Shown: positions 4,139 to 36,055, counted from the stretch's first letter. The stretch is 64,000 nucleotides of DNA from an uncultured Solirubrobacterales bacterium (GCA_963762205.1 CAVXJZ010000003.1:491371-555370); one strand, 5' to 3'. Program-made: numbers and translations. Notes: a model not told the origin generated them from the letters alone.

Positions 4139-4161
4139 ACCGGTAGCGTGATGCCGAGAAC

Positions 4162-5253: not shown

Positions 5254-5260
5254 TCACAGA

Positions 5261-7752: not shown

Positions 7753-7753
7753 C

Positions 7754-9715: not shown

Positions 9716-9780
9716 GCTCTCCCGGGCCGCTTCGTCCAGCGCGCGGCTTCCGTGACGTCGGCAAATACACTCGCGCGCGG

Positions 9781-11433: not shown

Positions 11434-11502
11434 TCGGCCGGGGGTGGGCGACGTTGGGGTCCGCTAGCATCGCCATTCCGCATACCGCAGCGGGGCAGAT
11501 AT

Positions 11503-12324: not shown

Positions 12325-12332
12325 GGGCGCCG

Positions 12333-13322: not shown

Positions 13323-13708
13323 GCGTCCAGGTGCCGATCGTGATGGCCGGCGCCGCGGCGCTGATGCTGTCGACCGTGGTCTTGGTGCGGCGGCGGATGC
13401 TGTCGATCCGCTACGGGCTCGGTTGGCTCGCCGTCTCGTTCATCGGTCTCGTCGGAGCGCCGTTGCTGAGCCTGTTCGCATCGCGTGTCGAGAGCCTCGG
13501 CTTTACCCCGACCGGTTTCTCGCTGGGGGTCTTCATCGTCTTCCTCGGCCTGGTGTGTCTGCAATTGTCGATCTCGCTCTCCGGCTTGCACAGCGCCGTG
13601 CAGGACCTTGCCGAGCATGCGGCGCTGGTCGAGGCGCGCGTGCGGGCGCTGGAGGATGAGCGCGCGGACTCCGAGGCGCAGGGGCCGCGTACGGAGTCGC
13701 TGCTGTGA
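13319..13708 (+). CDS. Small membrane protein, DUF2304-like
   Basis: The tail of ORF 12779..13708 taken from the GTG at 13319 (GTGA overlap with the upstream stop). 129 aa with three TM helices, then a helical tail (LAEHAALVEARVRALEDER). ATG 13343 is an alternative start. Confidence 0.5.
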   Translation: MSVQVPIVMAGAAALMLSTVVLVRRRMLSIRYGLGWLAVSFIGLVGAPLLSLFASRVESLGFTPTGFSLGVFIVFLGLVCLQLSISLSGLHSAVQDLAEHAALVEARVRALEDERADSEAQGPRTESLL

Positions 13709-14469
13709 CCGTGCCCTCTGCCGCGGACGTGAGGCGCGTGCTCGTGATCGTCCCCGCGCTCGACGAGGAGCGGACCGTGGGGAGCATCGTGACCACGACC
13801 CTCACTCTGGGCTACGACGTGTGCGTCGTCGACGACGGCTCGACCGACGCGACCGCCGTCCAGGCTCGTGAGGCAGGTGCCAAGGTCCTCAGCGTGCCGC
13901 TCAATCTCGGCGTCGGCGGGGCACTGCGTTGCGGCTTCCGCTGGGCGCTTGCCAACGGCTACGACGCCGCCGTGCAACTGGACGCGGACGGACAGCACGA
14001 TCCGCATGAGATCGCCGGGATCCTGCGGGCGATGGCGGAGGAGAACGCCGACATGGTGGTCGGCTCCCGCTTCGCGGATGGAGCCGGGGCGTACGAGGTG
14101 GATCCCGCACGACGCTTCGCCATGGGCCTGCTGGCGCGGCGGGCGGAGCGCGCGACCGGCACGAAGGTGACCGACTCGACCTCGGGGTTTCGCGCAATCC
14201 GCCGCCCGCTGCTCGATCAGTTCGCCGCGAGCTACCCGGTCGAGTACCTGGGAGACACGGTCGAGGCGCTGATCGAGGCGGGCCTCGCGGGCGCCAGGAT
14301 CGTCGAGCACCCGATCAACGCCTCGCCGCGGGCCCATGGCAGCGGCAGCGCCGGAGTGCTGGCGAGCATCTGGTACGTCGCCCGCGTGCTGTTCGCGGTC
14401 GAGCTGATGCACAATCGCCGCCCCGATCCACCGTCCGGCAGCCTGCCGAGCACACACGGTGTCGACTAG
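13705..14469 (+). CDS. GT2 glycosyltransferase (soluble, DPM1-like)
   Basis: VLVIVPALDEERTVG...VVDDGSTDAT...QLDADGQHDP...TSGFRAIRR. The GTG start overlaps the upstream stop (GTGA at 13705-13708). Confidence 0.8.
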   Translation: MTVPSAADVRRVLVIVPALDEERTVGSIVTTTLTLGYDVCVVDDGSTDATAVQAREAGAKVLSVPLNLGVGGALRCGFRWALANGYDAAVQLDADGQHDPHEIAGILRAMAEENADMVVGSRFADGAGAYEVDPARRFAMGLLARRAERATGTKVTDSTSGFRAIRRPLLDQFAASYPVEYLGDTVEALIEAGLAGARIVEHPINASPRAHGSGSAGVLASIWYVARVLFAVELMHNRRPDPPSGSLPSTHGVD

Positions 14470-14478
14470 GGCGACACC

Positions 14479-15387
14479 GTGACCATTGACGCCACCGCCG
14501 CCCTGCTCGAGCGGGTCTTCCCCGATGCGCCCCGCCTCTCCCGACCGGAGTACCTGCGCTGGCTCTACGAGGATTCGCCGTTCGGAGCCTCGATCGAGGC
14601 AAATCTCGACGACGCCGAGGGGCGCGCCGGGCACTACGCGCTCGTGCCGCTCACCCTGACAGATGCCGCCGGCCGGTACCCGGGGGCGCTTTCGCTCAAC
14701 ACCGCGGTCGATGAGCGAGCGCGTGGTGGCGGCGTCTTCGTGCGGCTGGCCACGGAGGCGATCGAGGAGGCGCGGCGCCGGGGTGTGCGGATGATCGTCG
14801 GCGTCGCGAATGCAAACTCGACCCCCGGGTTTGTGCGGCGACTCTCGTTTGAGCTCGTGGGCCCGCTCCCCGCGACGGTGATGTTGCCCCTTCCCGGCCG
14901 GCGGCGGCGCGTGCTGAGCGCATGGGCCGGAGAGGAGGCCTTCGCGGCCGGGGGTGTGGCCGGCGAGCTCGACGCCCTGCTGGCTCCGCCGGCACGGGGC
15001 CTTGCGCGCGCCTGGACGCAGGAGACGTTGCGCTGGCGGCTGGCCTCGCCCGGAGCCCGCTACGCACTGCATCGCTCCGAGAACATGCTCGTGATCACCA
15101 CCGCCGACCGCGGCAGCGGCATTCCCGTCGCCGTGCTGCTGAAGGCCTTCGCATCGGCGCCGCCGAGCGCTTCCGAGCGTCGAGCCATCGTGCGCGCCGC
15201 CTGCAGGTTGCACCGTGCGCCGGTTGCCGTGCACGTCGGGCTCAACGACACGGTCGCCTTCCGCGGCATCGCGCTGCCGAGGCGGTTGCGCCCCTCGCCG
15301 CTCAATCTGATCGTCCGCCATCTCGACGAGCGGATGCCGGAGGAGATGGTCGCCCGCTTCGAGTCCCTCGACTTCGACGCCTACTGA
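14479..15387 (+). CDS. GNAT-family acetyltransferase-like protein
   Basis: 302 aa. ...LNTAVDERARGGGVFVRLATEAIEEARRRGVRMIVGVANANS... is an acetyl-CoA-binding-type motif. Sits 9 nt after the GT2 stop. Confidence 0.55.
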   Translation: MTIDATAALLERVFPDAPRLSRPEYLRWLYEDSPFGASIEANLDDAEGRAGHYALVPLTLTDAAGRYPGALSLNTAVDERARGGGVFVRLATEAIEEARRRGVRMIVGVANANSTPGFVRRLSFELVGPLPATVMLPLPGRRRRVLSAWAGEEAFAAGGVAGELDALLAPPARGLARAWTQETLRWRLASPGARYALHRSENMLVITTADRGSGIPVAVLLKAFASAPPSASERRAIVRAACRLHRAPVAVHVGLNDTVAFRGIALPRRLRPSPLNLIVRHLDERMPEEMVARFESLDFDAY

Positions 15388-15390
15388 GCC

Positions 15391-17697
15391 TTGATCGCAA
15401 CCCTCCTCAGCGCCGCGGTCACCTGTGTCGTCTCGCTCTTCCTCGGGCAGGCTGCGCTGCGTCTCGCGGGTGCGCGGGAATGGAACTGGCTCGCACCCTC
15501 CGTCGGCATCTCGGTGGCCATGCTCATCGCCGTGCCGGCCGTCCACGTGCCCGGTGGTTGCGCCACCGTGGCGGTCCTGTTGGGAGTCCTCACCCTCGCC
15601 GCGATCGTCTGGTGCGGGCGGGCCCCGGCGCACCGGCCGCCGATCTCCGGCCTGCTCGCGGCGGCGCCGGTCATGCTGCTGGTGCTGGTTCCGTTCCTGG
15701 CCGTCGGCCACGCCGGGATCCTGGGCACCTCCTTCAACAACGACATGGCACCGCACATGTCGATCGCCGAGGGCTATCTGTCGCAGGCGATCGGAGGCGT
15801 CGCGCCCCCCGACTACCCACTCGGCCCCCACGCGATGGCCGCGCTGGTCGCCGAGGGGCTCGACGTTCGGGTGGACCACGCCTTCGCGGGGTGGTCGATG
15901 GCGTTGCCGGTCCTCAGCGCCTGGACCGCGCTGGCGCTCGTGCGCCGAGCTTCGTGGTTCGGGCAGGTGGCGACGGCGACGGTGGTGGGGATGCCGTTTC
16001 TGATCGCCGCCTATTACGGGCAGGGTGCCTTCAAGGAGGTTCTCCAGGCCTGCCTGGTGCTGGCGAGTGCCCTCTTCTTCAGCGGCTACGGGCCGCGGCT
16101 GGAGCGTGGGCGCTGGGTTCCGCTGGCGCTGATAGTCGGCGGAATCCTCTCGGTCTATTCGGTCGCCGGCCTGCCCTGGCCCATCGCCTTCGGGGCACTG
16201 TGGCTGTTTGGCACGGTGGCGCTGCGATTCCGCCGCGGCGGGAAACAGGGGCTGGCGGCGTCGGCGACCCGGGAAATTCCCGCGCTGGGCCTCGGTCTCG
16301 CGGTGTTCGCCGTCTCCATCTTTCCCCAGCTGCCGCGGATCTGGCGTTTCATCTCGCTCGACCAGGCGGCCAGCATCGCCAAGGACGACATCGGCAATCT
16401 GGCTGGTTCCCTACCGGTTTGGGAGGCGTTCGGTGTCTGGAATACCCCGGACTTTCGCCTCCCGGCATCGCCGGCGTTCACGGGCGGGATGTGGACCGCC
16501 TTCGTCCTCGCGCTTGCCCTCTTCGGGATCGTCTGGACGATGCGCCGTGGACGCTGGATGTTGCCGCTCGCGGCGGCGGGCGCGCTGTCGATCTGGGCCG
16601 CATCCGCCCACTCGCAGTCGGCCTACGTGGCCGCGAAGGCGCTGGTCGTCGCCTCCCCGCTGCTGCTGGCCCTCGCCGTGCTTCCGCTGGTGGAGCAGCT
16701 GCCCGACAGGCTTCCCCGCTCCCTGTCGTCCCTCTTTCGGAGCGCCCCCGGGCGGCCCCTCCCCTGGGCCCTGGCGTCGATCCTCGTCGTCGTGCTCCTC
16801 CTCCGCGTCGGGGTATCTGACGTGCGGGCACTGCGCGCGAGCCCGGTCGGGCCCACCGACCATGTCGATGAGCTGCGCGACCTTCGCCCGCTGCTGGATG
16901 GCCGGCCGACCCTGTTCCTCGGCAACGACGACTTCATCCGCTGGGAGCTCGCAGGGGTGCCCGTCCGGGCCCCCGTGGTCGGCCTGCAGGAACTGCGGAT
17001 TCGCCCGCGGAAGGCATGGGTCTATGGGAAGGCGCATGACTTCGACTCGGTCGGTGCCGGGACCCTCAACTCATATGACTGGATCGTCACGACGCGCGAT
17101 GCGGCCGGCAGCGACCCGCCGCGCGGCGTGCGTCTGTACAGGTCGACCCCGAGCTTCGACCTCTGGCGCCGGGTGGGGAAGGTCCGCCGCCGCTCGATCC
17201 TCGCCGAGGGCGAGATGCCCGGCGCCAGGCTCGATTGCCGAACGCCGGCCGGGCGCGCAGTCCTGAGGGGCGGCGGGGTCGCCGCCGTGCGTCCCGCGCC
17301 GGTGGTCGCACCGGGCTCTGCGCTCGGTCCGGGTGGAGCTGTCTCGGTGCCGCTCTCCCTGGCCCCGGGGCGCTGGCGGCTGGAGGCCGCCTATCTCAGC
17401 CGCCTTCCGGTCCAGGTGGCGGCGCCGGGGCTGCGTGTGACGCTCCCTCCCAACCTCGATCGCCCGGGCCCGCGCTGGCCGGTGGGGCGGCTCGAGGTGG
17501 TGGGCGGGGAGCAGCCCACCGTCGTCACCTTCAGCGTCGGGGATCCGATCCTGGCCCCGGGCCAGATCATCACCGAATTGGCGACGGTCGTCGCCACCCG
17601 GGACGCGACGGTCCGCATCCTTCCCGTGCGCCAGGCATGCGGTCGATACGTCGACTGGTATCGGCCCTCGGCGCAGTCGCATCGCGGTGGCGGCTAG
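15391..17697 (+). CDS. Large polytopic membrane protein (~500 aa membrane domain + ~260 aa C-terminal domain), unknown function; GT-C candidate
   Basis: 768 aa with more than 12 hydrophobic segments and a Pro/Gly-rich beta-type C-terminal domain. Starts 3 nt after the GNAT stop. Confidence 0.6.
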   Translation: MIATLLSAAVTCVVSLFLGQAALRLAGAREWNWLAPSVGISVAMLIAVPAVHVPGGCATVAVLLGVLTLAAIVWCGRAPAHRPPISGLLAAAPVMLLVLVPFLAVGHAGILGTSFNNDMAPHMSIAEGYLSQAIGGVAPPDYPLGPHAMAALVAEGLDVRVDHAFAGWSMALPVLSAWTALALVRRASWFGQVATATVVGMPFLIAAYYGQGAFKEVLQACLVLASALFFSGYGPRLERGRWVPLALIVGGILSVYSVAGLPWPIAFGALWLFGTVALRFRRGGKQGLAASATREIPALGLGLAVFAVSIFPQLPRIWRFISLDQAASIAKDDIGNLAGSLPVWEAFGVWNTPDFRLPASPAFTGGMWTAFVLALALFGIVWTMRRGRWMLPLAAAGALSIWAASAHSQSAYVAAKALVVASPLLLALAVLPLVEQLPDRLPRSLSSLFRSAPGRPLPWALASILVVVLLLRVGVSDVRALRASPVGPTDHVDELRDLRPLLDGRPTLFLGNDDFIRWELAGVPVRAPVVGLQELRIRPRKAWVYGKAHDFDSVGAGTLNSYDWIVTTRDAAGSDPPRGVRLYRSTPSFDLWRRVGKVRRRSILAEGEMPGARLDCRTPAGRAVLRGGGVAAVRPAPVVAPGSALGPGGAVSVPLSLAPGRWRLEAAYLSRLPVQVAAPGLRVTLPPNLDRPGPRWPVGRLEVVGGEQPTVVTFSVGDPILAPGQIITELATVVATRDATVRILPVRQACGRYVDWYRPSAQSHRGGG

Positions 17698-18824
17698 GCA
17701 TCGAGAAAGCGGCTGGGCCCGGAGGCCCTGCGGGACGGGTCCCGCAGGGCCTCGAGCATCTTGTGCGGGCTGAGCTCCTCCCATTTCGCGACGAGGTCAT
17801 AGTGGCCCGTCCGCTCGGCCACCACCTGCGTCGGGTCGTCGCGGAAGAGCACCTCGACGCCCATCTGCCACCACGGCTCCGGATCGCCGTGGCGGCCGGC
17901 GATGGTGATGCGCGCCCACGGCAGCTCCTCCTGCACGCCCCGGACCCCGGCGCCGAGCTCGCCCGCGGGGGCCGGGATCGCGTCGCAGACGACCAGCGCC
18001 CTCCCCGTCGCGAGCGCATCGCGTGCCGCGAGCGTCGTCGCCGGATTCGGGGGCCAGAGCGACGGCGGGTGCGTGGCGGCGAGCTTTTCGCCCCAGCGCG
18101 CAACGAAGACCGGGCGGTTGCGCTCGAACAGCTCGGCCGCGGCCGACTCGCAGCCCGACGAGAAGCCACCGTGCAGGACCCGGACATCCGGGACGTACAT
18201 GGTCCGCAGTCCCTGCTCGAGCAGCGTCAGGCAGAGGTCTGCGTCCTCGAAGTACGCCGGGTTGTAGGCATCGAGGAAGCCACCGGCCCGGAGGAACGTG
18301 TCGCGGCGCAGCAGCATGCACGCCGCCGCGCCGAAGTCGGTGGCGCGCGGGAACCGCCAGGCGGGGTCGTCGACGTCGTCGCCGTCGCCGAGCGCCAGCA
18401 CGCTTCCGTCCGCCGCGACGACGGCGCCGGCGATCTGCATCGTGCCGTCCTCGTTCACCAACGCCGGCACGACCGCCCCGACCCCGGGCCGGCGCAGGGC
18501 GGCGAGCAGTGGCTCGATCCACCCGGCGGGGACGATCGCGTCGCTGTTGACGAGGGCCAGGACCTCGCCCCGGGCGATACGGGCGGCCTGGTTGTTGGCG
18601 GCGCCGAACCCGGCGTTGGTGTCGTTGGCGAGCAGCCGAACGTCCGGGAAGCGCTCACGGATATGGCTGAGCGTGTCGTCGGGTGACGCATTGTCCACGA
18701 CGATGATCTCGTGTGGGACGTTGGTGTGCGCGCCGGCGGCGGCGAGAGCGCGCTCGACCCACGACCACGCGCCGTGGGTGACGACGACGATCGACACTGT
18801 CGGGCCGGTCACGCGCGGGATCAT
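17694..18824 (-). CDS. GT2 glycosyltransferase (rhamnosyltransferase-like) with C-terminal extension
   Basis: VSIVVVTHGAWSW...VVDNASPDDT...NAGFGAANN...FEDADLCLTL (ED/DxD). 376 aa. 4-nt convergent overlap with the upstream membrane protein gene. Confidence 0.75.
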   Translation of the reverse strand: MIPRVTGPTVSIVVVTHGAWSWVERALAAAGAHTNVPHEIIVVDNASPDDTLSHIRERFPDVRLLANDTNAGFGAANNQAARIARGEVLALVNSDAIVPAGWIEPLLAALRRPGVGAVVPALVNEDGTMQIAGAVVAADGSVLALGDGDDVDDPAWRFPRATDFGAAACMLLRRDTFLRAGGFLDAYNPAYFEDADLCLTLLEQGLRTMYVPDVRVLHGGFSSGCESAAAELFERNRPVFVARWGEKLAATHPPSLWPPNPATTLAARDALATGRALVVCDAIPAPAGELGAGVRGVQEELPWARITIAGRHGDPEPWWQMGVEVLFRDDPTQVVAERTGHYDLVAKWEELSPHKMLEALRDPSRRASGPSRFLDA

Positions 18825-18910
18825 GACGAGCGGCGGGGCTGGGCGCCCCGAGGACGACCGGACGCCGCAGCCGCGCTGTCTGCGGGCGTGGCTTCAGTAG
18901 TCTTGCCCAC

Positions 18911-19894
18911 ATGGCGCGACGCGCTCTGATCACCGGCATCACCGGCCAGGACGGCAGTTACCTGGCCGAGTTCCTCCTCGACAAGGGGTACGAGGTGCAC
19001 GGCATGGTGCGGCGCCTCTCGAGTGAGAACCACCATCGCCTGGAGGCCTTTCGAGACCGGATCACGATCCACACGGGCGACCTCCTCGACCAGCGCTCCC
19101 TGGGCGACGTGATGAGGGCGTGCGAGCCGCAGGAGATCTACAACCTGGCGGCGATGTCGTTCGTGGGGGCGTCCTGGAACCAGCCCACCCTGACTGCCGA
19201 GTTCACCGGGCTCGGCGTGACCCGGATGCTGGAGGCGATGCGGGAAGCGTGTCCGGACGCCCGCTTCTACCAGGCCTCGTCCAGCGAGATGTTCGGCAAG
19301 GTGCGGAAGACCCCGCAGAACGAGCTGACGCCCTTCTACCCGCGCAGCCCGTACGGCGTCGCCAAGGTCTACGCGCACTTCATCACCGTCAACTACAGGG
19401 AGAGCTACGGCCTCTACGCCTGCTCCGGGATCCTCTTCAACCACGAGAGCCCGCGCCGCAGCCTCGAGTTCGTCACCCGCAAGATCACCCACACGGCCGC
19501 TGCGATCAAGCTGGGCCTGGCGTCGAAGCTGGCCCTCGGCAACCTCGACGCGCGTCGTGACTGGGGCTACGCTCCGGACTTCGTCGACGCGATGTGGCGC
19601 ATGCTTCAGCCCGACGAGCCCGACGACTTCGTGGTCGGCACGGGCGTCGACCACTCCGTCGAGGACCTCGTGAACATCGCCTTCGCCTATCTCGACCTCG
19701 ACCCCTCGGAGTACGTCCACCAGGACCCCGCGTACATGCGCCCGGCGGAGGTCGATCTGCTGATCGCCGACCCGACCAAGGCCCGCGAGCAGTTGGGCTG
19801 GGAGTCCAGTGTGGACTTCGAGCAGTTGGTCAAGGTGATGGTCGACGCCGACCTCGCCCTGCTCGGCGAAGGCAGTCCGGTTTCCACAGCGTAG
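18911..19894 (+). CDS. gmd: GDP-mannose 4,6-dehydratase
   Basis: [83 protein letters not shown]. These are near-canonical Gmd motifs over the full length. Confidence 0.95.
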
Positions 19895-19914
19895 GCCCCG
19901 TCGCCTCGAGGCGA

Positions 19915-22900
19915 TCAGGGGCCGGCGTCGGGCGCCGTGGCGACTATCGCGTACTCGCCGACCCTGGTGCGGTCCTCATCCCAGTCGCCGCTGCCGACCG
20001 GCGCGAACACGTCACCCGCCGAGTAGCCGCTGAGCGCGCAGAGCGCGAGCATCGTCTCCGGGAAGAGCGGGTGCGTGTGAGTGGGGTCGACCCAGAATCG
20101 CCTTCAGCGCCGCCGCCGAATGGGGGTTGACCGTCTCGGCGATCAGCAATCCCCCGGGGCGCAGCCGCCAGAGGCCGAGCTCGAGGAAGCGCCGCAGCTG
20201 CTCGGGCCCCAGATGCTCGATCACCTGGGCGCTGAAGATCGCGCCGAGTGAGCCGGGCGGCGTCCGCTCGAGGACCTCGAGAAGGTCCCCCTGCTCGACG
20301 TTCGCATGGCCCTTCTCGCGACAGCGCTCGACCATGTCGGAATCGAGGTCGACCCCGCGGCACTCGATACCCCGCTCGACGAGCAGGTCGAGGAACTCGC
20401 CCCGGCCGCAACCCACGTCGAGGACCGGGCCACGGCCGGCGACCAGGTCCAGGTAGACCCGCTGGCGGTCGCGGATCATCTGCTCGGAACCGCGGAAGAG
20501 GTCCTCGAAGCCGCGATAGCCGCCCTCGTCGATCTCGCCCGGGGCGCTGCGGAAGCCGATCGTCCTTCCCAGGACGGGATGCTGCCTGCGGCCGAGGCGA
20601 TCGTCGTCCATGTAGGGCTTCGCCGCCGCGGCGGCGACCAGCTCGGTCGCCTCCGCAATCCGCCGGTCGAGCCTGCGCAGGGTCTGGTCGTTCTCGACGT
20701 CCATCCTCAGCGCTTCGGCAAGCACCTCCCGCAATTCGTCCAGCGACTCGGCGGTGCTGAGGTCGATCCGCCGTTGATGGGCCGCGTAGGGGCGCAGGAT
20801 GCGCATGTAGAGGCGCTTTGCGGCCACCCGCAGGCCGCCCCCCCGGCGCGGTGGCGGCTCGGAAAGGTTGAGCAGGTGCTCGAGCTGGCGTCGGCCGCTC
20901 GACGACCCGGCCGCCGCGTCGGCCGGGGTGGGACCCATGAGGCGATCGATCAGGCGTGCCCGCTTGACCTGCTCAATCCTCACCTTGATCGACTCGCAGG
21001 CAGTCTCGGGCGAGTGGGTGCGGCGGATGTCGGCCGCGGCCCGGCGGCCCCGCACGGCGGCGGCCTGCGGGTTCTCGAAGACCTGGCGCATCAGCGCCGA
21101 GGCGCGATCGAGATCCGGCTCGGCCCACTGTCTGTCCTCCGGATAGGGAGCGGCGTCGGGGCCGATCTCGACCATGGTGTGAGGGACGAGGTAGCTGTTC
21201 TCGTCGGTCATGAAGTCGAGGTTGCCGGAATAGCCCGTTGCGATCACCGGCCTGCCGAAATACATCGCCTCGGCCATCGTCAGGCCGAGCCCCTCGGAGC
21301 GATGCAGTGAGACGTAGCAGTCGCAGGCGGCGATCATCGCGTTCTTCATCGCGGTCGTGATCGTGTCCTCGATCAGGTGGATTTCCGGGCGGTCGGCCAC
21401 CACCGCCGCCAGTGCCTCCCGCTCGGCCGGGAACTCGTCGTCGCAGATGGACTTGATCACCAGCGAGGGGCCCGAGCCGGGCTCGAACTCCCGGCAGAAC
21501 GCCTCGACGATCCCGAGCGGGTTCTTGCGATGGAAGACGCTGCGGTAGTCGAAGACGAAGAGGAAGCAGAATCCCTCCGGCATCCCGAGCTCCGCCCGGC
21601 TCGCCTCCTCCGGCAACTCGGGCACGACCGGCATGCGGATCGTGTGGACCGGTTTCGACGAGAGCGGGCGGAGCGCGTCCGCGATGTGCTCGGAGGCGAC
21701 CCAGACTTCGTCGACGTAGTCGAAGGAGTGCCGCCATTGCTCGGGGAAGTGCGAGACCTCCCAGAACCAGATCCCGGTCGAGTGGCGGCCTTCGAAGAAG
21801 CGGCGGCCGAGGGCCGTGGCCACGACGGGGAGCATGTCGGCGTTGACGCAGATCAGGTTCAGGTCGTACGGATGCTCATCTTCGGCGAGCCCCTCCAGCG
21901 CCTCGGAGATGTCCTCGGGCACGCTGGGCGAGTCGACCGCCGCGACGCGGAACGTCGCCCTCGCGCAGCGCCGAGACGATCTGGCGCGCCGCCTCGCCGA
22001 CGCCCCGCGCCGAGCTCAGGTAGCCGACAACGTTGATCCCCGGCTTGGGGCGTGCGGGCCGCAGCGCCCGGTGGCGGTCGTTGGCCGACGAGGGGGGCGG
22101 GGGGAGGATCTCGACCGATACCCCCGTGTCCGGGGACGAGATGTGCAGCCAGGTGACGAAGGCGGGGCCGCTGTCGTCGTCGATGCTCGGGAAGATCCGG
22201 CGAAAGTCCGGACGCGTGTCCCACAGGGCCCTCGCATAGCGGTTGACACCGCGGCCCGCGTGCCTGCCGACCTCACTCTCCTTCAGGTACTCGACGAACC
22301 GCTTCGCCCCGCGCTCGGTGAATACGGACTCGGTGATCGATCCGACCTCGGCCCCGTCTCGAAACACCCGCCGTGCCGCCCGGTCGAGCCCGATGCCGTT
22401 GGGCATCGTCTCCCAGCCATAGGGCCAGGCGATCGCCTGCTCGAAGCCGTGGGAGAGCAGTTCCGCCGCGTACTCCCCGCAGATCCGCGCGAGGACGGGG
22501 TCGGCGCCGACGTCGATCCGGTTCTGGTGCTTGCTCAGCTCGGTCGGGCGCCGCGGGTCGAAGCCGCTGAAATGGAAGAAGTGAAGCTGCTCGCCGTCGA
22601 CCCGGTAGCCGCCGCCGTCGTCTTCGAGGCTCCGCGTGGGAAGGTTCCAGTAGGCGATGTTGAACGCCGTGTCCCGGAGGATGTCGATCCCCGGCCAGAG
22701 GCCCGGGGCCAGGTCGATCCACCGCTGGTCGACGAAACGCCCCTGCTCGGGCTCGTTCAGGCAGTCGGTCTCGAGGCGCTCCGACCACCAGTCGAGCAAA
22801 GCGTGAGCGGTCTGCCCCGCTCCGAGGGCGATGAAGCCGAGGTTGTAGGAGCCGGCGATGAGGATGTCCTCTTCGCTCGGCTTGCGGCCGTCGCGGGGGA

Positions 22901-23291
22901 GCGGCGCGGTGAAGTGCGGCGTCAGGACCACGTCGTGGCGCAGAGCGCGCTCGACGACCGGCTCGAGGGAGGAGAAGACCTGGATGTCCGGGTCGAGGTA
23001 GATGACCGAGTCCACCCCCGCCCTTTCCAGGAGGGTCCGCAGCAGCCATGGCTTGACGGCGGTCGACAGCTCCATCACGTCGTAGGAGGCCGCCATCCGG
23101 GCGGGATCGGCAAGGCCGATCTGATCGATCGTGATCAGCTCGAACGGCTCCTCGGCCGGATCGATGTAGCCGCTCGGCTCGTCGATGACGAGGACGCTGC
23201 AGGTGCCCTCCGGGTGGACCTCCAGGAAGGACTCGGCGAGGACGCGCGCGTGGGCAACGTAGTTCCTCGCGATGATCGTGCAGATGTTCAC
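19915..23291 (-). pseudogene. Tri-domain glycosyltransferase/methyltransferase (GT-A-like + GT4 + helical linker + class I SAM-MTase) interrupted by two apparent +1 frame shifts
   Basis: - ORF 21876..23291 (MNICTIIARNY...IYLDPDIQVF...) ends in the first strand of a GT4 domain (GINVVGYLSSARGVGEAARQIVSAL).
- The protein continues in the frame of ORF 20012..21922 (..VAAVDSPSVPEDISE..HPYDLNLICVNAD..EGLGLTMAEAM..; MTase VLDVGCGRGEF).
- The conserved MTase tail FWVDPTHTHPLFPETMLALCALSGYS...ATAPDAGP* is in a third frame and stops at 19915.
- The junctions lie at about 21938-21956 and 20094-20103. Confidence 0.7.
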
Positions 23292-23331
23292 CCGGCCGGT
23301 CCCCTGTTCGAAGGCACTCCGGGGATGATTA

Positions 23332-24138
23332 TCAAGAGCGGTTCATGGCCGTGGCCTTCTCCACGGTCCATGTGCTCATGTCCCAGCTTGCGGCCTCGTC
23401 GACGGCACGCTCGCCCGATGCGTCGAGCTCGAGCTTGCGCGCCGTCGCGCCACCGCGAAAGGCGTGCTGCCAGGTGCGGAGCGGCTCGAAGCCCGATCCC
23501 CGCAGCCACCCTTCGAGGGCGACCCGGTTGGGGGCCCATTGCGAGGTGGGATCGCTGCCGAGCATGTCGGCGGGGTAGTACTGGACGATCGGCAGTGACC
23601 GGAGCTCGGGGTGAAAGTCGGTGAGTCGGCGCCAATCTCCGGCGTCGTCGACGAGGCCCTCGTCGATCATGTGCGTCTCGAGCACCAGCAGCGCCTCGGG
23701 GGAGCAGACGTCGTGGATGCGGTCGAGCGCGAGCAGGGGGTGGCGCAGGTGGTAGATGACCCCGAGGAACAGCACCAGGTCGAACCGCCCATAGCGCTCG
23801 GGCGCCAACGAGTAGACGTTCTCGGTGACATAGGCCGCCTTCGAGCCGAGAAGCTCGGCGGCGATCGCAAAGCCGGTGTTGTGGGGTGGCTCGTTGTCGA
23901 GGGCGATGACCTCGCGGGCGCCGCGCCGCTCCGCCTCGAAGGTGAAGAAGCCGTCGCGGGCGCCGATGTCGAGCACGCGCATTCCGCTGAGGTCCTCGGG
24001 CATCCCGATCTGCGAGAGGAGCGCCGGGGTGTCCTGCAGCCCGGGCGTCCAGACGCCTGGAGCTACCTCGATCCGGTGGTGCCACTTCTCCTGCTTTGCG
24101 ATTGCCTCATGGGCCTCGCGTCCGCGGTCCTCCTGCAT
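23332..24138 (-). CDS. Class I SAM-dependent methyltransferase (DUF1698/CmoB-like, Methyltransf_9-type)
   Basis: ORF 23332..24411 was trimmed to the ATG at 24138. KWHHRIEVAPGVWTPG, VLDIGARDGFFTFEAERRGA, FDLVLFLGVIYHLRHP. The upstream 91 codons are Arg/Gly-rich filler. Confidence 0.7.
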   Translation of the reverse strand: MQEDRGREAHEAIAKQEKWHHRIEVAPGVWTPGLQDTPALLSQIGMPEDLSGMRVLDIGARDGFFTFEAERRGAREVIALDNEPPHNTGFAIAAELLGSKAAYVTENVYSLAPERYGRFDLVLFLGVIYHLRHPLLALDRIHDVCSPEALLVLETHMIDEGLVDDAGDWRRLTDFHPELRSLPIVQYYPADMLGSDPTSQWAPNRVALEGWLRGSGFEPLRTWQHAFRGGATARKLELDASGERAVDEAASWDMSTWTVEKATAMNRS

Positions 24139-24191
24139 GCGGGGGCAGTCTAGTCCCACGCGGAATGACGCCCGACGCCGTGGTCCCGGCG

Positions 24192-25358
24192 TCAGTCGAA
24201 TACGCGCTCGACGCCCAGCGGCTGCCTGCGGCGCAGGGTCTCCTCGGCAAGGCGCGATGCGTCCACCTCCACATGCGGCACGCGCGCCACGAAGCGCTCC
24301 GCGCCCTGCACGAGCACCGCCTTCGCGCCCACGTCGCGGACGTAGTCGGCATCCCAGCCGAACGGGACCCAGACGAAGTGCACCTCCCGGAAGACCTGCG
24401 CCATGAACCACGACAGCCCCTGGTAGTACGCGGCGCCGAAGCCGAACGAGTCGCCGAAGAGGACCGCGACCCGCGGGTCGGGGGCCCGCTCGTTGCGGAA
24501 GACGCGGCGCGTGCCGATGTGCCCGTCGACGGCGGCGATCTCGTCGCGATTGTCCTCGACGATGGTGGCGTCGAGGAGCGAGTTCGGCTCGCTGACGATG
24601 CTGACGATCTGTGGGTCGAACTTGGCTCCGAGGTCGCCGGCGATCGGATAGGAGCGCAGCGCGAGCTCGCTGAAGTCGGGCGGATCCTGGACGCCGAGCG
24701 CGGCCCGCACCGAGGAGAACAGCATCTCGTTGCCGCGGAAGGTGAGGTGGGTGTCGGTGCGCAGGTAGACGTCCTCATCCGTCGCCGCCGCGGCACGGAG
24801 CTCGGCGAGCGGGTAGGCGATCGGCATCTCGGGCACGGACAGCAGGCGCTCGATCGGACGCGGCCCGACCCGCGCCAGCTCCTCCGGGTAGCGGTCCTCG
24901 TAGACGGCGAGCTTGTCGGGCACGACCAGCAGCGCGGAGTCGATCTCGAGGGCGGCCGACTGCTCGGCTCTGCGGTCAATCACCTCCTGCCACTCGTCCA
25001 GCCAGCTCGGCTCCATCTCGACGGCGCCGACGTACTGGCCGAGGTTGGCGTTGCTCCCCCCGCAGAGGAACAGCCAGCCGTCGTTCCCGACGATCGCGAT
25101 CTCGTCGTCCGAGCGGGTGCCGGGGGGGAGGCCGAAGGGGGCGAGGTCGGGGTGGAAGACGTTGACGACCGGCGGGGCCTTCGAGGAGTCCGCCTGGCGC
25201 TTCAGCTGCCGCACGGCGTACTCCTCGGAGTCGAGCGCGACCCGCAGCAGGTCGTCCAGCGTGCTGACCGCCGCGAGCTGCCCCTCGATCTCCTCCTCGC
25301 TCGGCGTGCGCCCGAGCACCTGGCGGTAGACCGAGACGACCTGCTCGCGTGTGGGCAT
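24192..25358 (-). CDS. AlgX/AlgJ-type SGNH-like domain protein with DUF4214-like N-terminus (putative glycan O-acetylation)
   Basis: The N-terminus VVSVYRQVLGRTPSEEEIEGQL...SEEY is DUF4214-like. The core has GNDGWLFL, VVPDK, LRTDTHLTFRG and LFGDSFG, reminiscent of the AlgJ/AlgX DxHW-type motifs. No TM or signal peptide is evident. Confidence 0.4.
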   Translation of the reverse strand: MPTREQVVSVYRQVLGRTPSEEEIEGQLAAVSTLDDLLRVALDSEEYAVRQLKRQADSSKAPPVVNVFHPDLAPFGLPPGTRSDDEIAIVGNDGWLFLCGGSNANLGQYVGAVEMEPSWLDEWQEVIDRRAEQSAALEIDSALLVVPDKLAVYEDRYPEELARVGPRPIERLLSVPEMPIAYPLAELRAAAATDEDVYLRTDTHLTFRGNEMLFSSVRAALGVQDPPDFSELALRSYPIAGDLGAKFDPQIVSIVSEPNSLLDATIVEDNRDEIAAVDGHIGTRRVFRNERAPDPRVAVLFGDSFGFGAAYYQGLSWFMAQVFREVHFVWVPFGWDADYVRDVGAKAVLVQGAERFVARVPHVEVDASRLAEETLRRRQPLGVERVFD

Positions 25359-25367
25359 CGGCGCAGC

Positions 25368-27001
25368 CTACGAGGTCCCAAGCCGGCGGGAGGCCCAGGC
25401 GAGGTGCGCCCTAAGGCGCGGCATTCCGCGAAAGAGGTTGGGATTGGAAGAGGGATCGGCAGCCGTCAGCGGGAGCCAGCGATCGATCAGCGCCTCCTTC
25501 TCCCAGTCCTCGACCTCCGACGAGCGGCTGGATGACTCGAAGTGGTAGAGGACGGTGTCCGGGTCGTACACGACCCGCAGGCCCTTGGTGCGCAGCTTGA
25601 GGCAGTAGTCGATGTCGTTGTAGTTCACCGGAAGCGCCGTCGAGAGCCCGCCCACCTCGTCGAATGCCGTCGCCGGGGTCATCATGCAGGCGCCGGTCAC
25701 CGCCAGATAGTTCTGCGCCACGCGGGCGTTGTTCGCGTACCCCTCGAACTCACCGGTGAAGCCGCGGTAGATGTGACCCGGAAGCCCACTCTCCTCGAAG
25801 AGGACACCCGCATGTTGCAGGCGCCCGTCCTCCCAGAGAAGGCGCGCTCCCACGGCGCCGATCCCGGGATGCTGCGCGTACATGACCAGACGATCGATCC
25901 ACTCGGGGGTGACGACCTCCATGTCGTCGTTCAGCAGCAGCAGCAGATCCCCCTCGCTGTGTCGTGCCCCCAGATTGATCTTGGCCGAGAAATTGAACTC
26001 GCCGTCGTGGGTCGCCAGGCGCAGCCGGTCGCCGGCGACCTCCTCGATCTCGGCGATCGCCGCCGGGTCGGTCGAGGCGTCGACCACGCAGACGATCTCG
26101 TAGTCGGGGTAGGTGGATTTCTCGACGATGCTGCGAACGCAGTGCTCGACGAGCGTGACCTCCTCGTACCGAACCTCGCGCCTGGTGCCGTTGGTCGGGA
26201 TGACGATGCTGACCGGAGGCCGACGGGTGAGGGCCGGGCGAAGGTGGTAGACGCCCGACAGCTCCTCGTCGTGGTCGACGCGGGCCTCGAGGCCGATCCG
26301 CTCGCAGTGGGCCTGCACAGCGCGCGTCCCCGCCTCGAACGCCCACGGTTTCACCGCCTCGTCGCCGCTCGCGGCCGAGGTCTCGATCGCGCGCCAGTGG
26401 TACAGGACGCGGGGGATGTGGACCACGGACCGGGCGCGCTCGGTCACCCTGAGCACGAGGTCCCAGTCCTGAGATCCCTCGAACTCCGGGTCGAACCCGC
26501 CCACCTCCTCGACCAGTGACCTTCGGAGGACGCTCAGGTGGCAGGTGTACATCTGGGTGCGCATCCGCTCCGGCGACCAGTCCGGCTTGCAGAACGGCCC
26601 GAAGTGGAGGCCCGCGCGGTTGATCTTGTCCTCGTCGGTGTAGACGTAGTCGGCCGTCGGCTCCTCGTCGAGCGCCTCGGCGACGAAGCTCAGCGCGTCG
26701 GGGTGGAGCTTGTCGTCGTGGTCGAGCAGGGCGATGAACTCCCCGCGGGCCATCTCGAGCCCGTCGTTGGACGCCGCCACGATGCCGCCGTTGCGCTGCG
26801 GCGCTTGAAGCGGATCCGCGGGTCGCGGCGCTCGGCGGCCTCCAGCTCCGCGGCGACGTGCGGCCGGCTCGAGGCGTCGTCGACGAGGCACAGCTCCCAA
26901 TCTCGAAATCGCTGGCGCCGGACGGACCGCAGCATCGCCCGCAGGACCCCGGCCGGCGTTTCGTAGACCGGCGTGACTATCGAGAATCTGGGACCCGACA
27001 C
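25368..27001 (-). pseudogene. Tandem GT2-GT2 glycosyltransferase with one apparent -1 frame shift in the first domain
   Basis: - ORF 26690..27001 (GTG start; FSIVTPVYETP...LVDDASS...RDPRIRFKRR) stops making sense after RFKRR.
- The GT2 sequence continues in ORF 25368..26900 from ..NGGIVAASNDGLEMARGEFIALLDHDDKL.
- A second GT2 domain follows (VSIVIPTNG...VVDAST...LLNDDMEV).
- The junction is at about 26790-26805. Confidence 0.7.
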
Positions 27002-27003
27002 GG

Positions 27004-27213
27004 CTAGCCCCGGGATCCGCGGAGCCCTTCGACCGCCTTCACGACGAGCGCCGGCAGCGCGCGCAGCCTGCGGACAGCCCCGAGCACGTACCTGGCGCGC
27101 GTTTCGAGCTCCAGAAGCCGGCCGCGCGCGGCGCCGAGCTCCGCGTCCCTGGCGACGAGGAGGTCCCTCAGCCTCAGCACCTCCTGCCTTTCCCGGGCCA
27201 GCTCCTCCGCCAA
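27004..27213 (-). CDS. Small predicted coiled-coil protein (hypothetical)
   Basis: 69 aa with a TTG start. The heptad-like sequence is AEELARERQEVLRLRDLLVARDAELGAARGRLLELETRARY. Its TAG lies 2 nt before the GTG of the tandem GT2 gene. No homology recognised, so it may not be translated. Confidence 0.3.
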   Translation of the reverse strand: MAEELARERQEVLRLRDLLVARDAELGAARGRLLELETRARYVLGAVRRLRALPALVVKAVEGLRGSRG

Positions 27214-27291
27214 GCGGGCCGGGTCGGCCGGCTCGCCGAGGGGAGTGGTCTTGGCGGGAGTCGGGTCGTTTTACACGACGGCCGAGTCTAC

Positions 27292-28149
27292 TCAGAGGTC
27301 CTCGGCGATCCGGGGCGCCTCACGGCGAAAGACCCAGACCGCAAAGGCGCAGGCGCCGACGAAGATCGCGGTCGCCGGCAGCAGGTGCAGCACACCGCCG
27401 GCGGCCTCCACGGCCGTGGGCGCCTGCGGTTCGGCCAGGATCCAGACCCGTACCTGCTCGAAGATCACCGCCAGTGGGTTGATCATCAGCAGCTGTTCGG
27501 TCGTCTGGCTTTCGAAGGCGGTGACCGGATAGAGGATCGGCGTCCCGTAGAAGAGCACCTGCGCGACGACCAGCCAGATGATCGAGACGTCGCGAAAGCG
27601 CACATAGAGGATCGACAGCGCCGAGCTCACCGCCGCCGTGAGCACGAAGAGGAAGAGGAAGGCGACCGGTAGGAGCAGCCAGGTCCAGGTCGGGTCGACC
27701 CCGAAGGCGAAGACGAAGGCGAAGACGATCACGAAGTTGAGGCCGAGATTGAACGCCCCGGTGAAGACGGTCGCCAGCGGGATCACCAGGCGGGGGAACT
27801 GGGTCTTGCGGACGATGCCCTCCTGGGCCACCACCGAGGTGACGGCATTCGTCGTCGATTCCTGGAAGAAGGTGAAGAGGACGATCCCGAGCAGCAGCAT
27901 CACCGGGTAGTGCTCGACTTCGTCGCCGCCCACTCTGAAGACCCTGGTGAAGACGAACAGCAGGACGCCGAAGAGCATCAGCGGTCGCATCAGGGACCAG
28001 ACGTAGCCGAGCACCGTGCCGAAGTAGGCGCGCTTGAACTCGGTCACCGACATCAGCCAGAGCAGGTCGAAGAAGCGCTGGCGGCCACCTCCCAGGGCCG
28101 ACGGCCCGCGGACCTCGCGCAGCGTCGTTGCGGTCGCGGTCTGGTTCAC
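27292..28149 (-). CDS. wzm: ABC-2 type polysaccharide export permease
   Basis: ORF 27292..28809 was trimmed to the GTG at 28149 (GTGA overlap with the wzt stop). ...LMSVTEFKRAYFGTVLGYVWSLMRPLMLF...; six TM segments with ABC2_membrane-type organisation. Confidence 0.85.
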   Translation of the reverse strand: MNQTATATTLREVRGPSALGGGRQRFFDLLWLMSVTEFKRAYFGTVLGYVWSLMRPLMLFGVLLFVFTRVFRVGGDEVEHYPVMLLLGIVLFTFFQESTTNAVTSVVAQEGIVRKTQFPRLVIPLATVFTGAFNLGLNFVIVFAFVFAFGVDPTWTWLLLPVAFLFLFVLTAAVSSALSILYVRFRDVSIIWLVVAQVLFYGTPILYPVTAFESQTTEQLLMINPLAVIFEQVRVWILAEPQAPTAVEAAGGVLHLLPATAIFVGACAFAVWVFRREAPRIAEDL

Positions 28150-29420
28150 CCGTCTCCTCCGCCGAGCACGGTCGTCGTCGTCGATCGCTGCGGGAGCGAG
28201 ACGAGCCCGCGGTCTCCCGGCCCGCCGAAGACGACGAAATCGACCGCGCTGGGGACGTCGAGCGCCACCCCTCCTTCGAGGACGCGATTGACCCCGCAGT
28301 GCACGAAGTAGTGACCGGGCCCGAGGAGATTGGAGGCGACCGTCTCCACCCTGAAGCGCTCTCCGGCCTTGATCGGCCGGGGATTCTCGTCCCCGATCAC
28401 CGCGCGCAGCTGGCAGACGCCGATGCCGTCGCCGTTGACCAGGAGATAGCCGACGCCGAGCGCGGCGAAGTCCTCCCTGGCTTCGATCTCGACCCGGATC
28501 CGGATCTCGTCGCCGTGCTCGACCGAGCTGACCCTGCCCCCGTCGGCGTCGACGATGCGGGCGTCCAGCATTCTCACCGAGGCCGATTCGCTCGATCCTG
28601 TGGCGGCGGATGCATCCCCCGTGCCGGAGCGGTCGAAGTTGAGGCGCAGGTATCGTCGTCCGACCTCTTCGGGCTCGCCGATGTGGGCGATGCGGCCGTC
28701 GTCGATCAGCATCGCGCGATGGCAGTACTCCTCGACCGTGGCCATCTCGTGCGTGACCAGGACGATCGTCTTGCCCGCGGCTTTCATCGAGCGGAAGGCG
28801 TCCGCGCACTTCTGCTGGAAGGCGGCGTCGCCGACGGCGAGCACCTCGTCGATCAGCAGGATGTCGGCGTCGACCTCCATCAACAGCGAGAAGGCAAGGC
28901 GCACCAGCATCCCCGACGAGTAGTTCTTCAGCTTCAGGTCGACGAACTCCTCCAGTTCGGCGAAGGCCACGACGGCGTCGAGGCGACTGCGCGCCTCCTG
29001 TGGGGAGAGGCCCATCATCACCCCGTTCAGGACCACGTTCTGACGAGCGCTGAGCTCGGGGTCGAAGCCGACGCCCAGCTCGATGAACGGGGCCAGCCGC
29101 CCGGCGATGCGAATGCTCCCCGAGTCGGCGCGGTAGATGCTCGCGAGCAGCTTCAGCAGGGTGCTCTTGCCGGACCCGTTGCGGCCGACGATCCCGAAGA
29201 ACTCCCCCTGGCGGATCTCGAAGGAAATGCCGTCGAGGGCTCTGAGCTCGCGGTACTCCCGGGGGGCGAACGGCCGCGTGGCGCGCTCTTTCAGCGAGTC
29301 GATCCGGTGGGTCGGGATCCGGAACGCCTTCTCGAGCCCCTCGACCTGGATCGCCGGCGGCCGGTCGGCCAGGTCCTGCGAGGGGCCGGCTGGTGCTGTC
29401 GCGATTGGGTCGTCGGGCAT
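28146..29420 (-). CDS. wzt: Polysaccharide ABC exporter ATP-binding protein with C-terminal carbohydrate-binding-type extension
   Basis: GIVGRNGSGKSTLLK (Walker A), YSSGMLVRLAF (signature), LLIDEVLAVGD (Walker B), VTHEM (H-loop). About 150 extra C-terminal residues are beta-rich (VEHGDEIRIRVEIEA...GHYFVHCGV), like the Wzt_C domain. Confidence 0.9.
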   Translation of the reverse strand: MPDDPIATAPAGPSQDLADRPPAIQVEGLEKAFRIPTHRIDSLKERATRPFAPREYRELRALDGISFEIRQGEFFGIVGRNGSGKSTLLKLLASIYRADSGSIRIAGRLAPFIELGVGFDPELSARQNVVLNGVMMGLSPQEARSRLDAVVAFAELEEFVDLKLKNYSSGMLVRLAFSLLMEVDADILLIDEVLAVGDAAFQQKCADAFRSMKAAGKTIVLVTHEMATVEEYCHRAMLIDDGRIAHIGEPEEVGRRYLRLNFDRSGTGDASAATGSSESASVRMLDARIVDADGGRVSSVEHGDEIRIRVEIEAREDFAALGVGYLLVNGDGIGVCQLRAVIGDENPRPIKAGERFRVETVASNLLGPGHYFVHCGVNRVLEGGVALDVPSAVDFVVFGGPGDRGLVSLPQRSTTTTVLGGGDG

Positions 29421-29450
29421 CGGCGGGGCGAAGGGTAGGCGAAAGGGCCG

Positions 29451-30311
29451 CTAGCGCCCTGCGGAGCGGGATGCGGCCTTCCGCAGCCTCGAAGCCAGCC
29501 TGCGGGCCAGTCGTCGCCCGCGACCGGTGCCGGCCGGCGCAATCGGGTCCGCGGGCGGCAGCGGCGGGGCGCCCGCCTTGCGGAGGATGACGATGAACTC
29601 GATCGCCTGCCGCGCCGCCGCTTCGATGTCGAAGGCCTCCTCGAGCCGCTCGCGGCAGTGGAGGATCAGCTTCAGGAACTCAGCCTGGGTCCAGACGTGC
29701 ATGTGGATCGAGTACCGGGCCGCTTCGAGCTCGCGCGAACGCGCCTCGACCCGCTCCTCCGTGTCGCCCTCCTCGTCGACCACGAGCCGGCTCCACTCGT
29801 CGTAGTGCTCCCGCCGCGAGCGCTCCGCCCCCTGTTCGTGATCGGCGACCATGTGATCGAGCGCGGTCACCGGACGCCGATGGTCGAACGTGTGGCGCTT
29901 GTCCGGGACGGCGTAGAAGAGGATGCCCCCCGGCCTCAGTTTGCCGAGGTGGGTTCCGATCGTGCGGATCGGGTCCTCGCAGTGCTCGAGGAAGTGGTTG
30001 GCGACGATGAAGTCCTGGGACTCGTCGGGGACGGTCTCCAGGAGCTCGCCGTTGTCGATGACGTCGACGGGGGTCAGGTCCCAGTCGGCCAGCTCCGCGT
30101 ACTCGGCGCGGAGGTCGTCGACCGACATGCGGTCGACATAGCGCACGCGGGCCCGGGGCGGCACCTCGAGAGGTAGGTGGAGGGCGCCGATCTCCAGCCC
30201 CTGGCCCGCCAGGAAGCGATCGGCAAACACCCGTCGCGCATCCAGAAAGACGGGCAGAGGGTCCTCCGGGCGGGCCTTATCCTGGTCAGCCCTGCTACGG
30301 GTCGCGCTCAT
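29451..30311 (-). CDS. Class I SAM-dependent methyltransferase
   Basis: GLEIGALHLPL, FIVANHFLEHCEDP, LRPGGILFYAVPD. 286 aa. First gene of the minus-strand operon that continues into wzt-wzm. Confidence 0.7.
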   Translation of the reverse strand: MSATRSRADQDKARPEDPLPVFLDARRVFADRFLAGQGLEIGALHLPLEVPPRARVRYVDRMSVDDLRAEYAELADWDLTPVDVIDNGELLETVPDESQDFIVANHFLEHCEDPIRTIGTHLGKLRPGGILFYAVPDKRHTFDHRRPVTALDHMVADHEQGAERSRREHYDEWSRLVVDEEGDTEERVEARSRELEAARYSIHMHVWTQAEFLKLILHCRERLEEAFDIEAAARQAIEFIVILRKAGAPPLPPADPIAPAGTGRGRRLARRLASRLRKAASRSAGR

Positions 30312-30338
30312 TGCCGCAGGCTATCCGTTCGGCACCCG

Positions 30339-32208: not shown

Positions 32209-32235
32209 CGGGGGAGGCACGATAGCTTCCCCACG

Positions 32236-35146: not shown

Positions 35147-35147
35147 C

Positions 35148-36029: not shown

Positions 36030-36055
36030 CGAAGTAGCGTATCCGAGGGAAATTC

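Follow-up and report, generated by a model that had tools for sequence, protein, structure and literature searches.

In pathways that depend on ATP-binding cassette (ABC) transporters, a coiled-coil protein bearing a terminator is the marker of chain-length control, and the carbohydrate-binding module of Wzt is the reader of the terminal cap (PMC11231755). Single polypeptides that join a coiled coil, a terminator and glycosyltransferase (GT) modules are known from Klebsiella pneumoniae, where they are represented by ORF6 of serotype O7 and WbbB of serotype O12 (PMC11231755), and WsaE likewise carries a methyltransferase and GT modules in one polypeptide (PMC2943079). Here, a related arrangement is described in a stretch of 64,000 nucleotides from an uncultured Solirubrobacterales bacterium (GCA_963762205.1, CAVXJZ010000003.1:491371-555370), hereafter the window, to which all positions refer unless another locus is named. 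The minus strand from 23291 to 19915 encodes one protein of about 1,124 residues across three abutting frames. The stretch corresponds to one gene from a conserved family of actinobacteria, found mainly in the Solirubrobacterales, and on balance its product is probably a cytoplasmic multi-module enzyme of a Wzm/Wzt-dependent cell-surface glycan pathway, the frame shifts being errors of the assembly.

A single gene read in three frames

A first-pass annotation of the window, made from the DNA alone, had joined three minus-strand frames into one protein of about 1,125 residues, and the open reading frames (ORFs; Table 1), the DNA alignment with the closest orthologue, translated searches and full-length homologues all bear this out. 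The closest relative, P0001 (1,124 residues), is encoded on a 65.7-kb Joint Genome Institute metagenome contig that served as the main reference locus (L001), whose synteny with the window extends over about 19.7 kb (12004-31723). The target gene is 92.2% identical to its L001 orthologue over 3,375 nucleotides, and the sole gaps in the alignment are two single surplus nucleotides in the window, both of them inside the ranges to which the annotation had assigned one surplus base per junction. A tblastn search of P0001 against the window returns three adjoining query segments (1-447, 449-1077 and 1065-1124) in three frames, with 91, 87 and 95% identity, respectively, and deletion of both surplus bases yields an open frame of 1,124 codons, the product of which is 90% identical to P0001 at 100% coverage. 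The sequence motifs quoted for the individual parts, namely IYLDPDIQVF, GINVVGYLSSARGVGEAARQ, the helix with ESLDELREV, VLDVGCGRGEF and, in the third frame, FWVDPTHTHPLFPE, also stand at the places given for them.

The same continuity is seen in more distant relatives. With the frame-corrected protein of 1,124 residues as the query, 2,183 proteins were retrieved at E <= 1e-10, and more than 100 full-length single-ORF homologues with up to 90% identity were found, mostly from Solirubrobacterales. Nearly all of the best 120 (P0001-P0120) are full-length, at 1,056-1,370 residues and in most cases 100% coverage, the exceptions being proteins of 883 and 889 residues, and the named sources among these 120 are Solirubrobacterales or Actinomycetota metagenome-assembled genomes (MAGs). 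A scan of a genome collection with one genome per species gave 28 related loci, mostly from Solirubrobacterales and one from Rubrobacteraceae, the best of them 74-80% identical, and both junction positions are read in one frame in every gene-bearing locus among L001-L018. The residues on either side of both junctions are conserved, with Lys1063, Phe1065, Trp1066, Val1067 and Asp1068 invariant in the 38-sequence alignment in which invariance was scored throughout.

A stretch of this kind could also consist of three natural separate genes, or be translated by programmed +1 ribosomal frameshifting, and both target shifts do run in the +1 direction. The shifts are, however, seen neither in the 92%-identical orthologue nor in any other related locus or protein, no orthologue organized as three genes with the same boundaries was found, and neither junction has a slippery or stop-codon context. 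The would-be gene borders are also unlike natural boundaries, as the first strand and helix of a family 4 glycosyltransferase (GT4) fold are cut off from the rest by junction 1, and the last strands of a methyltransferase by junction 2. Since the shifts are unconserved and the junction contexts non-slippery, both possibilities are considered extremely improbable.

Domain architecture

All four parts that had been proposed for the protein, a GT-A-like domain with a DPD motif, a GT4 domain with its first strand in the upstream ORF, a helical segment behind it and a class I S-adenosylmethionine (SAM)-dependent methyltransferase with its tail in another frame, were recovered by profile searches or in structural models (Table 1). 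The N-terminal 471-residue ORF matches no Pfam family at E <= 0.01, and NCBIfam likewise gave no match in the region, so that the first domain was identified by structure comparison only. In an AlphaFold2 model of residues 1-444 (predicted local distance difference test (pLDDT) score 80.6, predicted template modelling (pTM) score 0.81) it resembles the GT8-like GT-A enzymes: a Foldseek search of the PDB places LgtC (1g9r; E 1.8e-6, probability 1.00) first, followed by glycogenin, GlyE, the catalytic domain of UGGT and XXYLT1, with target-normalised TM-scores of 0.54-0.63, and LARGE1 is matched as well. The invariant D100-P-D102 corresponds to the DxD metal/nucleotide motif of such enzymes. The domain is accordingly GT8-like in its modelled fold, whereas membership of GT8 by sequence was not found. 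The mostly helical region that connects it to the second GT module also varies in length within the family, the second part to do so, with 88-166 residues, and the homologues of 1,056-1,064 residues are without about 65 residues of it.

Residues 416-785 form a complete GT-B domain that belongs to GT4, the first strand and helix of which precede junction 1. Pfam Glycos_transf_1 and Glyco_trans_1_4 both score above their cut-offs (PF00534, 34.3 bits, cut-off 26.4; PF13692, 36 bits, cut-off 27), about 400 residues align in Foldseek to PBCV B736L, GlgM and such retaining GT4 enzymes as BshA, TreT, PimB', PimA and MshA, and both Glu666 and Glu674 are invariant. Behind the GT4 domain, the full-length model of P0001 (computed as a monomer, pLDDT 76) has a single long helix of low pLDDT between two low-confidence linkers (residues 786-820 and 889-925), along which hydrophobic residues are spaced by three to four positions with one stutter.

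The C-terminal domain, spanning residues 926-1118, is a class I SAM-dependent methyltransferase. Pfam Methyltransf_25, Methyltransf_11 and Methyltransf_23 score above cut-offs (PF13649, 51 bits; PF08241, 48.6 bits), and Asp958, Gly960, Cys961, Gly962, Arg963 and Gly964 of motif I are invariant. Junction 2 takes off the last 60 residues of the protein, including the stretch FWVDP..H..PLFPE, in which Phe1065, Trp1066, Val1067, Asp1068, His1071 and Pro1074-Glu1078 are invariant. The closest structure is 3dli, found both with a family profile searched against the PDB (3dli_A, E 2.6e-38) and by Foldseek (E 3e-15, 32% identity). When all PDB sequences were searched with this profile at E <= 0.01, no WbdD chain was matched, the hits being 3dli and generic methyltransferases together with a weak match to CgnL (7pd7, E 0.0025), the structure to which the O7 ORF6 methyltransferase is most closely related (PMC11231755). 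A fold search with the full-length protein returned mostly generic GT4 and methyltransferase matches and nothing specific on terminators.

A linker helix of variable length

Length variation was measured in the segment that separates the GT modules from the methyltransferase (residues 835-892 of the window protein; 20615-20788, minus strand). Across 121 sequences, comprising the 120 homologues and the window protein, it measures 44-189 residues while the catalytic domains stay nearly constant in length. The lengths fall in 102 of the 121 proteins into two classes modulo seven (50, 57, 64, 71, 78, 85 and 176; 47, 54, 61, 68, 75 and 82), and 13 of the 23 distinct lengths do so, against about 6.6 by chance, a count that lends support but is no formal test, because the sequences are related. 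Such heptad-stepped lengths would fit a coiled-coil spacer selected for its register and are compatible with a molecular ruler.

Two of the homologues, P0106 (883 residues) and P0114 (889 residues), as well as loci L009-L011, represent variants that stop just past the start of the helix and are without the methyltransferase. The convergent gene for Gmd comes directly next in L009, so that the module is missing there and has not been split off. We tentatively propose, while leaning slightly against rather than for it, that the intact family may be an uncharacterised actinobacterial polymerase-ruler-terminator of reverse domain order, the ruler of which would have been tuned over evolution, by heptads, to lengths of about 44 to 189 residues. 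If true, the homologues would offer a ready-made series of rulers through which to see the dependence of glycan chain length on the spacer in envelopes of the Gram-positive type. In another version of the proposal, considered less likely, both shifts are real in this strain, where they would mark the loss of capping.

Origin of the frame breaks

The two breaks of the target gene are not alone in the window. Seven verified single-nucleotide shifts, five of them surplus and two missing bases, are distributed over four unrelated genes at about one per 9 kb: two in the target, one in a gene with two GT2 domains (double-GT2), two in an Lhr helicase gene and two in a gene for a protein of about 760 residues. 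Breaks were also sought independently of any reference by codon-score segment and Viterbi scans that flag same-strand frame switches without a stop codon, and these were used instead of a crude frame-plot of GC content at third codon positions, whose strand calls were too noisy. The Viterbi scan gave nine sites (2580, 7842, 20097, 21954, 26803, 45856, 46309, 62630 and 62781), two of which, 2580 and 7842, proved on inspection to be ordinary gene boundaries, with a start codon beside a low-complexity C-terminal tail; the other seven coincide with the shifts named above.

In the double-GT2 gene, one nucleotide is missing at about 26793; the 544-residue L001 protein is split by tblastn into frames -1 and -3, the DNA alignment concurs, and the corrected N-terminus matches Pfam Glycos_transf_2 with 88 bits. 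The Lhr ORF (45124-49797, plus strand) stays open although about 150 of its codons (45857-46309) are truly in another frame, entered by a +1 and left by a -1 shift; correction extends the coverage of the Pfam Helicase_C profile from positions 43-93 to 6-107, and a position-by-position alignment joins the shifted segment to the Mycobacterium smegmatis Lhr structure 5v9x. The gene for the 760-residue protein (61205-63486, plus strand), which has a CarboxypepD_reg-like C-terminal region, occupies three frames with shifts at about 62640-62670 and 62771-62848, and the single-ORF homologues P0121 (760 residues) and P0125 (785 residues) cover all three.

A further apparent shift near 32796 was assigned to the reference L015, as it is seen against L015 only and the window frame keeps its coding signal, and other breaks relative to L004 and L015 were attributed to those reference MAGs, since L001 reads through. 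L004 and L015 have frame breaks of their own in transporter, GT2 and neighbouring genes, at places equivalent to about 26475-28950 and 32796 of the window, which suggests that indel errors are common in the assemblies of this lineage.

Since five more breaks, in three unrelated genes, are present within these 64 kb, those of the target most likely arose as sequencing errors, and we regard it as very probable that both are indels introduced by the assembly and not mutations of the organism. No premature stop and no large deletion was found in the genes compared with L001, and the target has no further indel relative to L001 and no stop codon in its corrected frame. The ratio of nonsynonymous to synonymous substitution rates (dN/dS) between the target and its L001 counterpart is 0.27 for the first segment, 0.28 for the second and 0.24 for the third, with neighbouring genes at 0.03-0.35, and coding statistics remain intact in the shifted frames. 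As the dN/dS values are much the same among the segments and within the range of the neighbours, selection on the downstream frames is not relaxed, and neither relaxed constraint nor additional lesions after the first disruption, which would mark a pseudogene, are seen in the target.

Several points nevertheless weigh against assembly errors and for genuine recent mutations, by which the gene would be a young pseudogene with perhaps a surviving GT8-like module, the GT4 and methyltransferase modules being lost, and the strain would have lost or altered its glycan. Homopolymers are the commonest site of indel errors in long-read and 454 data, and neither of the target junctions lies in one. The seven shifts are partly paired, an arrangement that is only weakly predicted if errors occur uniformly, and three of them fall within one glycan cluster, where the neighbouring double-GT2 gene is also broken, a pattern that would be compatible with decay of the pathway as well. 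The dN/dS of the target (0.28) is near the top of the neighbours' range, and inactivation is common in surface-glycan loci. Yet the four other shifts, in Lhr and the unrelated 760-residue protein, are outside any pathway-specific explanation, nonsense codons and large deletions are lacking as described above, and dN/dS is well below 1 and does not change across the shifts, with coding statistics retained. Genuine mutation is therefore judged distinctly unlikely. Of the first-pass view that a fused GT-methyltransferase is broken by two shifts, the architecture and the pathway context stand, while the break as a biological feature does not, and the conclusion that the protein would be inactive or split into three peptides finds no support in a window with seven shifts in four unrelated genes, no premature stops and equal dN/dS values.

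Gene neighbourhood

The target lies in a conserved cluster (Table 1) in which the order Wzt/Wzm/double-GT2/AlgX-like/target/Gmd is kept in L001 and in most of L001-L018. The Wzt protein also has Wzt/RfbE- and TagH-like matches in NCBIfam, and of the 18 related loci with any neighbour match (L001-L019), 11 have its gene beside the target; that of Gmd, a guanosine diphosphate (GDP)-mannose 4,6-dehydratase, adjoins the target in 17 related loci with 88-98% identity. A 90-residue ORF, a gene for another methyltransferase and more GT2 genes also lie near the target, and altogether the cluster has at least three methyltransferases besides the fused domain. In L001, a gene for a 514-residue methyltransferase-like protein (6351-7895 of that contig, minus strand; weak PCMT and Methyltransf_11 matches) is located between the double-GT2 and AlgX-like genes and is absent from the corresponding place in the window (about 25358-25383).

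The window is a large cell-envelope glycan region, whose wider parts (1356-13322 and 30339-36050) hold extra GT2 genes as well as genes for a PMT_2-like membrane protein of 691 residues, a 534-residue membrane protein with a weak match to the LA_3751/2 glycosyltransferase family, a polysaccharide deacetylase, an LPG_synthase_TM protein, two short-chain dehydrogenase/reductase (SDR) epimerase/dehydratases, RmlA-long, RmlD and RmlB. Two large conserved proteins, of 768 (15391-17697, plus strand) and 550 residues (9781-11433, plus strand), have no Pfam or NCBIfam match, and the former is encoded near the target in many related loci, with 53-92% identity.

Table 1 Features of the target gene and of its neighbourhood in the window; residue numbers are those of the frame-corrected protein, except where a model of P0001 is named
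Feature	Position	Strand	Basis or remark
First ORF	23291-21876	-	471 residues
Second ORF	21922-20012	-	636 residues
Third frame	to stop codon 19915-19917	-	
Junction 1	21938-21956	-	One surplus nucleotide at about 21947, context ccgCgtc; exact base ambiguous within a few nucleotides; 1-nucleotide gap against L001
Junction 2	20094-20103	-	One surplus nucleotide at about 20098, context gcgAttc; non-homopolymer; 1-nucleotide gap against L001
GT-A domain, GT8-like, residues 1-265	22497..23291	-	AlphaFold2 model, Foldseek; D100-P-D102 invariant
Mostly helical inter-GT region, residues ~266-415	22047..22496	-	Models
GT4 first beta-strand, Gly-rich loop and first helix, residues 416-447, still in frame one	21951..22046	-	Strand E416-423 and helix H430-444 in model; tblastn segment 1-447 ends at 21951
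Rest of GT4 (GT-B) domain, residues 449-785	20938..21946	-	Pfam, Foldseek; E666-x7-E674 motif
Single long alpha-helix, candidate coiled coil/ruler, residues 821-888 (68 residues)	20627..20830	-	P0001 model
Class I SAM methyltransferase, from its N-terminal to its middle portion, residues 926-1064	20099..20515	-	Pfam, profile, Foldseek; motif I VLDVGCGRGEF
Methyltransferase tail, residues 1065-1124, and stop codon	19915..20097	-	tblastn, 95% identical to P0001
Gmd, GDP-mannose 4,6-dehydratase, convergent with target	18911..19894	+	NCBIfam TIGR01472, 418.8 bits (cut-off 415)
Methyltransferase, 268 residues, directly upstream of target	23332-24138		
AlgX-like SGNH protein	24192-25358		
Double-GT2 glycosyltransferase	25368..27001	-	544 residues in L001; frameshifted in the window
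Wzm ABC-2 permease	27292..28149	-	L001 counterpart of ABC2_membrane family, 98% identical; NCBIfam galactan_ABC_perm-like
Wzt ABC-transporter ATPase with C-terminal carbohydrate-binding domain	28146..29420	-	Pfam ABC_tran, 70.4 bits; Wzt_C (PF14524), 58.8 bits (cut-off 30.4), residues 278-407
RmlA-long, RmlD, RmlB	32131-35146		

Proposed role of the protein

In the proposed model, the two predicted retaining GT modules, GT8-like GT-A and GT4, would elongate a polyprenol-linked glycan at the cytoplasmic face, and the donors probably include a 6-deoxyhexose derived from GDP-mannose, given that Gmd is an invariant neighbour. The variable heptad-stepped helix, probably oligomerised, would keep the methyltransferase away from the GT modules until the chain is long enough, whereupon the methyltransferase would O-methylate most likely the non-reducing end and halt growth. 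The methyl cap could then be read by the C-terminal carbohydrate-binding domain of Wzt and the glycan exported via Wzm/Wzt. A polymerase role, terminal methylation and a ruler function are each plausible on this arrangement, and the likening of the gene to the WbdD, WbbB and WsaE pathways, already made at the outset, is apt because Wzm and a Wzt with a Wzt_C domain are encoded in the same conserved cluster, with fused precedents on record (PMC11231755, PMC2943079).

Some observations speak against the model. The methyltransferase has no sequence match to WbdD when its family profile is compared with all PDB sequences, the model of the helix, a monomer, is of low confidence and the heptads along it are imperfect, and natural variants of 883-889 residues do without the methyltransferase. 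The fused domain could also methylate internal residues, since at least three other methyltransferases are encoded in the cluster. By such an account the gene is intact, but its methyltransferase would decorate internal sugars and be no terminator, the helix would serve only to link or to dimerise, and some other means would set the chain length; any of the several cluster methyltransferases might provide the cap, or the glycan might be heavily methylated, and the closest structure, 3dli, is that of an uncharacterised archaeal methyltransferase and not of WbdD. On the other hand, Wzt carries the Wzt_C domain that reads the terminal cap in characterised systems (PMC11231755), the linker varies by heptads at fixed catalytic domains as would be expected of a length-critical spacer, and WsaE and the K. 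pneumoniae O7 ORF6 are precedents for a GT-fused methyltransferase that acts as a terminator. Internal decoration hence appears to be the less probable function, although a serious contender, and terminal capping is preferred.

Implications for annotation

In practical terms, a single gene should replace the three ORFs, and the window sequence should be treated as error-prone. At least four genes within the 64 kb need frame correction, for which reason claims of pseudogenes or split genes from this window are unsafe. What the locus adds to the known set is a conserved Solirubrobacterales family whose multi-module enzymes build glycans for ABC export and probably cap them, with the heptad-stepped variable spacer as a new detail in line with the idea of a molecular ruler. 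The advance is useful but incremental, as E. coli, Klebsiella and Geobacillus already provide established cases of the principle.

Comparison with known systems

The target shares with the terminator class of systems the wzm and wzt genes in its cluster and a Wzt with a C-terminal Wzt_C domain that is predicted to bind the glycan. By domain description, one of the closest counterparts is the K. pneumoniae O7 ORF6, which consists of a methyltransferase-kinase terminator, a coiled coil and two GT2 modules (PMC11231755). In both, one polypeptide, encoded beside wzm/wzt, unites two GT modules and a methyltransferase with a central helical spacer, which in the target is that of the model, and in both the cap is, or in the present case would be, read by the carbohydrate-binding module of Wzt. 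The order is, however, reversed in the target, with the GT modules N-terminal and the methyltransferase C-terminal, the GT modules are GT8-like and GT4 instead of GT2, no kinase-like domain is evident, and the helix is shorter, with 68 residues in P0001. As the host is an actinobacterium, the product of the target is also not a lipopolysaccharide O antigen, unlike that of O7 ORF6.

WsaE of Geobacillus stearothermophilus, likewise compared by its description, combines a 2-O-methyltransferase with two rhamnosyltransferase domains for the synthesis of an S-layer glycan (PMC2943079). The resemblance extends to the trifunctional organization, the Gram-positive host, a Wzm/Wzt cluster with rml genes near, and a methyl cap that has been proposed to end chain growth and to be recognised by Wzt (PMC2943079), whereas the methyltransferase of WsaE is N-terminal.

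The WbdD and WbdA proteins of E. coli O9a/O8 (PMC3482155, PMC11231755) offer a similar set of functions on two separate chains. They share with the target a methyltransferase terminator on a coiled-coil ruler, for which the fused domain and its helix are candidates, a polymerase of GT4 modules that uses a GDP-sugar, as predicted here, and a Wzt_C domain as the reader of the cap. In contrast, the terminator and the polymerase are fused in the target, in which neither a kinase domain nor a C-terminal membrane helix was identified, and no match to the WbdD chains in the PDB is detectable. The K. pneumoniae O12 WbbB, in turn, also has a polymerase and a terminator in one polypeptide with a coiled-coil ruler between them, a position that the candidate helix would take in the target, but its terminator is a Kdo transferase of family GT99 in place of a methyltransferase, and its GT modules belong to other families. 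The target would be a further example of the known fused polymerase-terminators, set apart from them by its domain order, the pairing of a GT8-like with a GT4 module, the lack of a kinase domain and the lineage of its host.

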